From the IMG/VR virus record IMGVR_UViG_2778261567_000020: 6,180 bases of DNA. One strand, given 5' to 3'. How positions within the stretch are numbered: the first letter of the stretch is position 1; every line of letters starts with the position of its first letter. The stretch is from a virus (Duplodnaviria; Heunggongvirae; Uroviricota; Caudoviricetes). Made by a program: the position numbers. Shown here piece after piece: positions 1-3,000 of this stretch.

Positions 1-3000
1 GATGGCGTGGAGACATACGGTGTGTGGGGACTCTCCCTGCCGTCACTGCGTCGTCGCCTGTTCCGCTGTGTTTCCATCCGGGAAAACACGGACGGCACCT
101 TTGCCATCACGGCAGTGCAGCATGTGCCGGAAAAAGAAGCCATCGTGGATAACGGGGCCAGCTTTGAGCCGCAGTCAGGCACCCTGAACAGCGTTATCCC
201 ACCGGCAGTGCAGCACCTCACGGTGGAGGTGAGCGCGGCTGACGGCCAGTATCTGGCACAGGCGAAATGGGACACGCCGCGGGTGGTGAAGGGGGTGCGC
301 TTCAGTCTGCGACTGACCAGCGGAAGCGGAGAAGACAGCCGTCTGGTGACCACCGCCATCACTGCGGATACAGAGCATCGTTTCAGTGGTCTGCCGCTCG
401 GGGAATACACCCTGACGGTCAGGGCGATTAACAGCTATGGCCAGCAGGGCGAACCGGCCACCACCACCTTCCGGATTAACGCGCCAGCAAAACCCGCCAC
501 CATTGAACTGACGCCGGGGTATTTTCAGATAACGGCGGTCCCGCGTCTTGCGGTGTATGACCCGACGGTACAGTTTGAATTCTGGTTTTCGGAGGCAAAA
601 ATCGCAGACACCGCACAGGTGGAAACCGCTGCCCGTTATCTGGGGACCGGCAGCCAGTGGAGCGTCTCCGGCAGCCGGATTAAGCCGGGGACGGATTTCT
701 GGTTTTATGTGCGCAGCGTCAACCTGGTGGGCAAGTCTGCGTTTGTGGAAGCCGGCGGGCAGGCCAGCAATGATGCGGAAGGTTATCTGGACTTTTTCAG
801 AGGAGAAATAGGGAAAACGCATCTGGCTCAGGGGCTGTGGGAGCTGATAGATAACAGCCAGCTTGCGGATGATATGGCGGAAATGCAGACCACCATCACC
901 GAAACCCGCAATGAAATCACACAGACGGTCAGTAAAACGCTGGAGAGCCAGAGCGCCACCATACAGCAGATACAGCGCGTGCAGACGGGCACAAATGATG
1001 ACCTGGCTGCACTCTACATGCTGAAGGTACAGAAAACGAAAGACGGCATTCCCTATGTGGCCGGGATAGGTGCGGGGATTGAGGATACTGATGGTCAGAC
1101 GCTGAGCAACATACTGCTGCAGGCTGACCGTATAGCGATGATTAACCCGCAGGACGGCAACACCACGCCGTTATTTGTGGCGCAGGGGAATCAGTTGTTC
1201 CTGAATGATGTTCTGATGAAATCGCTGATTGTTGATTTTGCCAGTATTACAGGTGAGATCCAGTCTGATGGTTTTAAATCCGGATCACCCGGCTGGCGTT
1301 TTTCACGTAACGGAAAACTGGAAATTAACAGCAGTAATGACGGTGGGCGCATGACTTTTAACGGCGATCGTATCGATGTGTATGATCAGAATGGTGTGCT
1401 GCGTGTCCGGATGGGGAAACTCTGATGTTCATTCTTCAGGAGCAGTGATATGGGATACGGTTATTCTGTTTATGATGGCAAAGGAAGGGATATCAGCGGG
1501 TTTCTCACTCCGATATTTTTTCTTGACAGATTCACGGCATCGTCAGGCTCAAAAACATACGCAGATCCACCACGGGGAAAGTCATTGTGTGCTGTATGTT
1601 CATTAATGCCTTTGAATAATGATAATCATATAAATATTCCGTCTCCTCAGATTGTTATTGAAGGTAACACGGTTCGCTGGTCAAACCTGTATCAGGGATT
1701 AGGTTCATATATTTATACATTCTGGAGGTGAGCATGCATGGAATGAGTATTACACAGCCGGATGGAAGTGTATGGCTGAGCCCGGAATTTACCCCTGCCT
1801 GTTTAATTAATAAGGGGAATCTGGCAGCCTCAAAGGGCGCGCTATACAGAACATCAATACCTTCCGGGAAGTCGTGTTTTTTCTTTATAAAAAGCACCGC
1901 CAGGGCAAATATGATGTTTTTACATGAACAGTCTGGTGGTGTGCATACATTAAAACTCCATCAGTTATCAGGTAACCCAGGAACAATTACTGTTTATGCG
2001 TTTTCCGATATGGTGTTACCGCATTCTGGTTATGGTATTGCCATGTATAATAAAAACGGAGAGATGATTTATCATGGCGAGATGATGCCGCTTGATGCAA
2101 AACTGGTTAATGTTGATGTCCAGTTTTCAATTAACATGGGGTATCCGTGTGCAATAATGCCTGCAATGGTTGGCGTATATAATTACAGACGAACAGATTA
2201 TGACAGGCCTGTATATGTCACCATGACGGGGGCAACGGGAAATCAGATATATAACGGGGAATGGTATTCGAGTAATGTCACCTGGGATGTGCGTAAATCC
2301 TATACCAGACAGGTTCTTGTTATTGATACATCAAAATATGATTAAATCACTGTGCAGATAGTTTATTTTGATGGTCAGTTAATTTTATGCGTAAACAGCA
2401 TGTGATGCATTATCGAATCTGTTCTGTTTAATTATGGCTGGGTATTAAAATGAAAATATCAGGTTTTATTGCCGGGTTTTATTTTACTGGCATGAGTTTC
2501 TTTCCCGTGATGTCGTGGGCTGCAAAGGGGGAGCATACGTTGTCGCAGGGGTATGTCTGGCTTCATGTGTCCGGTCTGAAAAATTTTGTGAAAAACAGGT
2601 CTGATTATAACAGAATGGCACTTGAACAGGTTGTAAATGACGGTTTTCATTCCCGGGAAAATGATAATGGTGGTTTCAGCAATTATGTGGGAAACGATAA
2701 GCCACTGCAGGGGATAAACGTCAGGTATCGTTATGAAATAACGGATAAGCTGGGTGTGATGAGTTCTTTTACCTGGGTACACTCAAAAACCAGTGCAAAA
2801 TCCATAGCTGATATTCATCCCGCCGGGGCAGGAGAGGCAACATCCCATGTATCAGCCAGGACTGATATCATTGCCAGTTACCGGAGTTTCCTGGCAGGGC
2901 CGGTATGGCGGGTTAATGAGTATGCCAGTCTCTATGCAATGGCTGGTGCTGGCATGACAAAATTTTCTGCGGATTTGAAAATCAGTAAAAATATCAAAGG

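Follow-up and report, generated by a model that had tools for sequence, protein, structure and literature searches.

In a 6,180-nucleotide stretch of a tailed-phage genome (IMG/VR record IMGVR_UViG_2778261567_000020; hereafter, the window), the gene of a J-like tail tip protein ends with a TGA, behind which the same frame stays open into a 93-codon open reading frame (ORF93), followed by a second small gene, ORF205. The sequence covers the distal tail genes of a lambdoid Escherichia coli prophage, its positions 1000–2400 being 100% identical to E. coli strain FHI_NMBU_11 and 99.4% identical to the O111:H8 strain 8E. We conclude that the shared frame is a coincidence and that ORF93 is translated independently of J (a probability of about 0.85–0.9). 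As the alignments read, J is a naturally short variant ending in a conserved tip domain, without the C-terminal receptor-binding domain of the lambda type. ORF93 and ORF205 probably form a virion tip and receptor module, and the locus adds one more example of a split tail-tip recognition system that has been described before.

The shared frame of J and ORF93

According to the sequence and the list of open reading frames, J occupies frame 1 and ends with ...ATG GGG AAA CTC TGA, the TGA being at 1423-1425. It is followed by eight in-frame sense codons, TGT TCA TTC TTC AGG AGC AGT GAT (CSFFRSSD, 1426-1449), and by the ATG of ORF93 at 1450, which runs in the same frame for 93 amino acids to the TGA at 1729-1731. 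The Shine–Dalgarno sequence AGGAG of ORF93 is located at 1438-1442, 7 nucleotides upstream of the ATG. The coordinates of the stop, of the open codons, and of ORF93, as well as the presence of the AGGAG, had been given in an earlier sequence-only reading of the window, and are confirmed here. The 24-nucleotide spacer is unchanged in 11 out of 11 near-identical loci.

The chance of such an arrangement was estimated as the probability of being in frame (1/3) multiplied by the probability of eight codons without a stop (0.59-0.73, depending on whether the local composition or all 24-nucleotide stretches of the window are taken), and thus about 0.20-0.24 of junctions are expected to have a stop-free, in-frame spacer of this length. 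The pattern is observed at one out of five same-strand gene junctions of the window, which fits the chance expectation. About 75 loci were collected, and the junction upstream of the ORF93–ORF205 pair was tabulated for each; the 11 loci with the window allele, which all have the same junction, were counted as one observation. Among the independent junction alleles, only that of the window is in frame and stop-free, and its frame relation is conserved in no other.

The other alleles differ in spacer, frame, strand, or neighbours. In the L060-65 allele, with ORF93 84% identical, J ends two codons later (...RIGKLDE-TAA), the spacer of 29 nucleotides, offset by 2, keeps only TTCAGGAG of the window spacer, and a TAA stands immediately 5′ of the ORF93 ATG. 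Two junction alleles of the short-tailed Shiga toxin (Stx) phages have spacers of 14 and 17 nucleotides, respectively, also with offset 2, and a TTG start. In E. coli Ch1, J ends with RLGRL-TAA at offset 2, and is followed by a 74-amino-acid open reading frame and a 220-amino-acid distant homologue of ORF205, while the FhuA-type analogues in Bas05 and Bas15 have offset 1. In phage-plasmids of ~108 kb, the gene upstream of the pair is not J, and a one-nucleotide indel in an A-run switches the frame among near-identical copies. In JenP1, tunus, Bas04, and Bas06, the pair lies on the strand opposite to J, convergently, and in CMS-2020a ~48 kb separate the short J from the pair. Some spacers have features of their own: GC-rich hairpins separate the small open reading frame from the J stop in Bas05 (L077 6008-6050, GGGGCGTTTGCCCCG) and Bas15 (L078 6608-6644, GGGGCTTCGGCCCC), with nothing comparable in the window spacer.

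ORF93 itself has the properties of a separate gene. It matches phrog_557 (E 2e-24), a family found in 278 phage records; its homologues retain the length of ~93 amino acids and the N-terminus from Met1, and the ratio of nonsynonymous to synonymous divergence (dN/dS) of 0.09 in comparison with the L060 allele, at dS of ~1.1, indicates purifying selection. When 1.84 billion cluster representatives were searched with a profile, 22 families were obtained, all of them stand-alone proteins of 25-100 amino acids matched from residue 1-3, and no ORF93-like domain was found within a longer protein or fused to J. Thus, the option of chance plus an independent gene, one of three offered in the sequence-only reading and favoured there on account of the AGGAG, is supported by the frame odds, by the diverged junctions, and by ORF93 having its own AGGAG. 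Translation of ORF93 would start from this Shine–Dalgarno sequence and ATG, probably coupled to the termination of J 24 nucleotides upstream.

The locus L066 (Logan ERR4297034 contig), where ORF93 is 92% identical and called with 118 amino acids, was considered as a case of N-terminal extension and rejected, as the call comes from single-base homopolymer indels in J and ORF93, probably a sequencing or assembly error. A scan of genome contigs with ORF93 gave a sole match, a 254-bp contig of a Xanthomonas pisi assembly (L009, NZ_JPLE01000211.1) that encodes a 67%-identical ORF93 fragment and carries no junction information; it is most likely enterobacterial phage DNA contamination.

The end of J is equally regular. 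The window contains only the last 472 amino acids of J, and the last 141 of these align to the extreme C-termini of J-like proteins from Ch1, the L060 type, Stx2 II, JenP1, Bas04, and CMS-2020a, with a common ending ...V(Y/K)DxN(G/N)xLxVxxG(K/R)(L/I) plus 0-6 residues. The J-like proteins of seven other phages and prophages share the terminus ...VYDxNGxLRVRxGxL and finish within 0-6 residues of where the window J ends, the stop being TAA, TAG, or TGA; the C-terminus also matches the extreme ends of several PHROG tail families. The tip of J is 67% identical to that of E. coli Ch1, annotated as intact, and 60% identical to the short J tip of CMS-2020a, its best match; dN/dS of 0.14 relative to the L060 type is consistent with purifying selection as far as the stop.

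The body of J is homologous to that of lambda gpJ (Ig_J, Ig_J_second, Phage_Tail_Tip), and in both cases lom and side tail fibre genes come next. However, lambda gpJ continues past the end of the window J for ~150 residues that form a covalent C-terminal receptor-binding domain, without a counterpart here according to the alignment. Correspondingly, the NCBIfam model lambda_TipJ (NF049904) matches J with E 1e-215 over positions 554-988 of 1163, the C-terminal ~175 positions being absent; the score is 718.5 bits against the curated cut-off of 1950, for a sequence that comprises only the last 472 amino acids. In both matching complete genomes (L001 and L002, each at 3352-6300, corresponding to the window up to ~1299), RefSeq/PGAP has no annotation for ORF93 and lists gpJ as a pseudogene "missing C-terminus". 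This wording results only from the model match ending at position 988 of 1163, and the pseudogene label is probably an annotation artefact of lambda_TipJ.

A recombination joint is present at the locus as well. Similarity to the common J genes of Stx prophages ends at ~1211-1216, and, judging by this nucleotide comparison, the real joint is inside J at ~1212-1217, and not at the TGA. The imported block extends to at least 3260, and its part 2346-3260 is present in only two out of 5426 complete E. coli genomes.

Two further explanations of the open frame were listed in the sequence-only reading. If the TGA were a nonsense mutation or a recombination scar, ORF93 would once have been the C-terminal domain of a longer J; the pseudogene call by PGAP and the mosaic structure of J would agree with that, but the joint lies elsewhere, seven J-like proteins stop at practically the same residue, and fusions are lacking among the 1.84 billion representatives. 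Alignment of homologues had been proposed in order to see whether the TGA is replaced by a sense codon elsewhere, and a sense codon was never found at the J stop. Hence, this explanation is highly improbable.

The same holds for programmed or otherwise functional low-level UGA read-through, by which 102 residues (the linker plus ORF93) would be added to J and be covalently present on a fraction of tips, with a junction peptide reading ...RMGKL-X-CSFFRSSDMGYGY, that is, ...VRMGKL-(W/C/R)-CSFFRSSDMGYGYSVYDGK. The A1 protein of phage Q-beta is a programmed read-through extension of this kind. The window shares with it a single in-frame UGA between a structural gene and a downstream coding sequence, but differs in the own start of ORF93, the unconserved frame, and the unfavourable stop context, and is not a member of this class. 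UGA is the leakiest stop codon of E. coli (PMC5289835), the frame is indeed open from the TGA into ORF93, which plausibly resides at the J tip anyway (PMC12309495), and the arrangement is kept in all 11 near-identical copies. These copies, however, are essentially one allele, while each diverged allele is out of frame or has added stops, and the ORF93 gene is on the other strand in four phages and 48 kb distant in one. Moreover, in contrast to the C or A that follows UGA in leaky contexts, the next base here is U, and U at position +4 lowers read-through in E. coli (PMC5289835); no stimulatory RNA structure is seen around the J stop (fold z = +0.77, nothing unusual), an Rfam scan there gave no match, ORF93 has its own Shine–Dalgarno sequence and ATG with the N-terminus conserved from Met1, and no fusion protein was found in the profile search. 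A promoter scan around the J stop yielded promoter-like sites at a level not above shuffled sequences. What tells against a purely coincidental frame is that E. coli always has some basal UGA read-through, and thus traces of a J–ORF93 fusion may be made. Still, there is very little chance that low-level read-through places ORF93 covalently on one chain of some J trimers; if it did, the result would be mixed virions with alternative tail tips and a bet-hedged host range. As the frame is most likely coincidental, the in-frame arrangement itself has no importance.

ORF93 and ORF205 as a probable tail-tip module

It had been assumed in the sequence-only reading that the C-terminus of J sets the host range. 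This premise fails for the J in question, as the lambda-type receptor-binding domain is absent, and therefore specificity most likely resides in the two downstream genes. ORF93 and ORF205 form a conserved gene pair: ORF93 ends 2 nucleotides before the start of ORF205, which has its own GGAGG, and this spacing suggests coordinated synthesis. ORF205 matches phrog_425 (E 3e-70), found in 350 phage records. Models of both proteins are soluble all-beta folds, and no hydrophobic N-terminus, signal peptide, or membrane helix is evident in either by eye. The fold of ORF205 matches a solved receptor-binding protein (RBP), while a fold search of BFVD with ORF205 returned only uncharacterised phage proteins. 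The six-stranded model of ORF93 (predicted local distance difference test score, pLDDT, 78.9) had no significant match in a fold search, and PDB sequence searches with both proteins were empty. ORF93 has no lipobox, and therefore is not an exclusion protein of the Cor/Llp type.

Alleles of the pair track the receptor measured for the BASEL phages (S5 Table): BtuB for Bas04 and Bas06, FhuA for Bas05 and Bas15, and LptD for Bas18. The identity of the window allele amounts to 62% with the Stx type, for which BamA has been reported as the receptor, to 42% with the BtuB type, and to 75% with JenP1 and the phage-plasmids; the similarity of ORF205 to the second locus gene of the FhuA-dependent Bas05 and Bas15 is distant but significant (profile E 6e-12 and 9e-11, respectively).

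Taking this into account, the most likely model is that ORF205 would be a separately encoded RBP docking non-covalently on the trimeric J tip, with ORF93, synthesised alongside, as a small adaptor or accessory subunit; the J tip, ORF93, ORF205, and Lom would then constitute an imported mosaic module, from ~1212 to at least 3260. The analysis directly shows the coordinates, the frame statistics, the junction comparisons, purifying selection, homology, and the fold match; for the pair, a location in the virion, docking on J, and binding of any particular receptor are inferred.

Several known systems can be compared with this arrangement. RBP loci beside gpJ homologues were described by Maffei 2021 (PMC8594841) and in a preprint (10.64898/2026.04.02.716166). 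As in these "bona fide RBP loci" of Drexlerviridae, Dhillonvirus, and Nonagvirus/Seuratvirus, J of the window lacks the lambda-type receptor-binding domain, and proteins of ~90-100 and ~200 amino acids adjoin its 3′ end. ORF93 is 48-52% and ORF205 is 41-42% identical to the respective proteins of the BtuB-dependent phages (Bas04_0024/0023 and Bas06_0025/0024), and the pair is distantly homologous to the FhuA-type pair of Bas05 and Bas15 according to blastp and profile comparisons. In contrast to the loci of virulent siphoviruses, the window pair resides in a temperate lambdoid prophage and is followed by Lom rather than by an exclusion lipoprotein, and, unlike the convergent BtuB type, it is on the strand of J.

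Each locus of virulent small siphoviruses that was examined contains a gene for a lipoprotein of 72-89 amino acids with a near-identical start (MKKLIAV...LTGC or MKTLIMICAVLLSGC), whatever the receptor type. Lipobox N-termini are present in Bas04_0025, Bas06_0026, Bas05_0025, Bas15_0027, and Bas18_0026, and these lipoproteins presumably are superinfection-exclusion proteins; at J-adjacent RBP loci, a cognate protein of this kind is common, though not universal.

The same order of a J-like tip, a 92-amino-acid protein, a 205-amino-acid protein, and Lom is found in the short-tailed Stx phages (Traversvirus phi24B, YP_009168168-170 plus Lom, PMC12309495; Sp5 ORF71-74, Mondal 2016, PMC5155283), whose proteins are 58-61% identical to ORF93 and 62-63% identical to ORF205. 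In phi24B, the members of this quartet have been described as a spike lacking a receptor-binding domain, an "Ig-like" small protein, a "hand-like" one, and Lom; a cap formed on the spike by the "hand-like" protein has been proposed, purely from in silico complexes (Matusiak 2025, PMC12309495). Unlike the window phage, the Stx phages are podoviruses with a tip protein of 422 amino acids and BamA as the reported receptor.

Another comparator is the RBP of Oekolampad (Bas18), solved in the complex with LptDE (PDB 9rpt chain C; 10.1101/2025.07.07.663478). It has 321 amino acids vs. 203 in ORF205, and there is no detectable sequence similarity between the two (10% identity, profile E 0.11); the Bas18 protein lacks a partner resembling ORF93, and forms a pair with a superinfection-exclusion lipoprotein. 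The window pair was considered as an RBP locus of the LptD type (rtp44/45), and this was rejected, as there is no sequence relation and the nearest homologues with known receptors are of the BtuB type.

An alternative is that ORF93 and ORF205 are neither virion components nor receptor-binding, and constitute a "moron", an accessory cassette that accompanies lom and is dispensable for infection. Several observations speak for this and against a receptor module. In Sp5, ORF72 (92 amino acids), ORF73 (205 amino acids), and ORF74 (Lom) are outside the nine genes needed for plaque formation or lysogenisation on K-12; the J-like ORF71 is essential, whereas ORF72 and ORF73, for which individual deletion primers are given, are not (PMC5155283), the dispensability of ORF72-74 following from the list of essential genes and the listed primers. 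In the ~108-kb phage-plasmids, the genes around the pair are non-structural (RNase H, ORF6N, Fic/Phd), and Lom is present in some cases. The PHROGs category of the ORF205 family is "moron", and the labels of the pair families are "outer membrane protein" and "membrane associated protein". Finally, the window has no open reading frame for a superinfection-exclusion lipoprotein in 1425-3256, unlike the loci of virulent phages, and has Lom there instead; Lom is found 3′ of the pair in four contexts, among them the Stx phages and the L060 and L067 loci.

On the other hand, the by-eye lack of a signal peptide or membrane helix in both proteins agrees with the low membrane affinity computed by Matusiak 2025 (PMC12309495), and the strictly virulent Bas04, Bas06, JenP1, and tunus, where a lysogeny moron would make no sense, keep the pair directly at the 3′ end of J, their J being short and the locus offering no further RBP candidate. 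The agreement of the pair alleles with the receptor type and the match of the ORF205 fold to a solved RBP also argue against a moron, as does CMS-2020a, the phage-plasmid that has both the pair and the best-matching short J tip. Thus, the accessory cassette seems unlikely but is a serious competitor, and we prefer the tail-tip module.

One motif recurs at the locus: GYGxx(V/M)Y(D/N)xxG is present at the N-terminus of ORF93 (1453-1485) and in residues 99-112 of ORF205 (2028-2069), and resembles the last strand of J (1387-1422, IDVYDQNGVLRV); either a docking strand common to the three or mere chance could account for this. The idea that ORF93 is a paralogue of one half of ORF205, both having GYGxxxY[DN]xxG, was rejected, given the hhalign probability of 1.4% with 14 columns aligned.

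Features of the window

Coordinates are collected in the table.

Table. Positions of the features discussed, in window coordinates unless another locus is named.
Feature	Position	Strand	Basis or remark
3′ part of the gene of the J-like central tail fibre/tip attachment protein, entering the window from the left	1..1425	+	Pfam Ig_J, Ig_J_second, Phage_Tail_Tip
Distal tip domain encoded by the final 69 codons of J, from the mosaic joint to the conserved motif ...IDVYDQNGVLRVRMGKL	1217..1422	+	nucleotide similarity, C-terminal alignments
J stop codon (TGA, then T) and 24-nucleotide spacer with AGGAG	1423..1449	+	sequence reading
ORF93, separate small all-beta protein of PHROG 557, proposed as an accessory part of the tail-tip module	1450..1731	+	
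ORF205, 203 amino acids, all-beta "hand-like" protein (PHROG 425), probable RBP docking on the J tip	1734..2345	+	
Ail/Lom-family outer-membrane beta-barrel gene	2450..3181	+	Pfam Ail_Lom
Terminator-like hairpin and T-run after lom	3208..3241	+	10-bp stem, 7 GC pairs, then TTTTTTTATT; consensus match only
Side tail fibre gene	3256-4782		collagen-like Gly-X-Y region, Peptidase_S74
T-even-type Gp38-like adhesin gene	4868-5380		Gp38_N, phrog_1121
Remnant of 70 amino acids	5456-5668		C-terminus of DUF4376/tail fibre assembly protein
DinI-like gene, cut by the window end	5932-6180	-	
Lipoprotein genes of other loci	L008 3723-3992, L076 6546-6815, L077 6986-7213, L078 7640-7858, L079 7623-7844		

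The hairpin after lom probably ends the transcription unit of J, ORF93, ORF205, and lom. The side tail fibre gene behind it encodes a long collagen-like region and a chaperone domain, and contains a tandem duplication of 243 nucleotides (3897-4139 and 4140-4382, 75% identical); the protein has 508 amino acids in the window and 529 in the two matching complete genomes, so the repeat length seems to vary. The Gp38-like adhesin gene stands 3′ of this collagen-like fibre in a lambdoid prophage, and would be a second, independent determinant of host recognition in the window. Just 3′ of the DUF4376 remnant, an IS1414 transposase is inserted in FHI_NMBU_11 (L001 10517-12016) and absent from the window, which means that the window derives from a different genome. 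The DinI-like gene is typical of a prophage end region.

Implications

The locus is of modest use in practice. Viability and host-range predictions that require an "intact J" would misjudge prophages with a short J such as this one. The same recognition cassette is found in short-tailed Stx phages, in virulent T1-like phages, and in phage-plasmids as well as in this long-tailed lambdoid prophage, which occurs in pathogenic E. coli, an O111:H8 strain among them. In a milder reading, the split cassette of the J tip, the small protein, the hand-like RBP, and Lom would move as a unit among these four groups. Such sharing bears on the exchange of host range among them.

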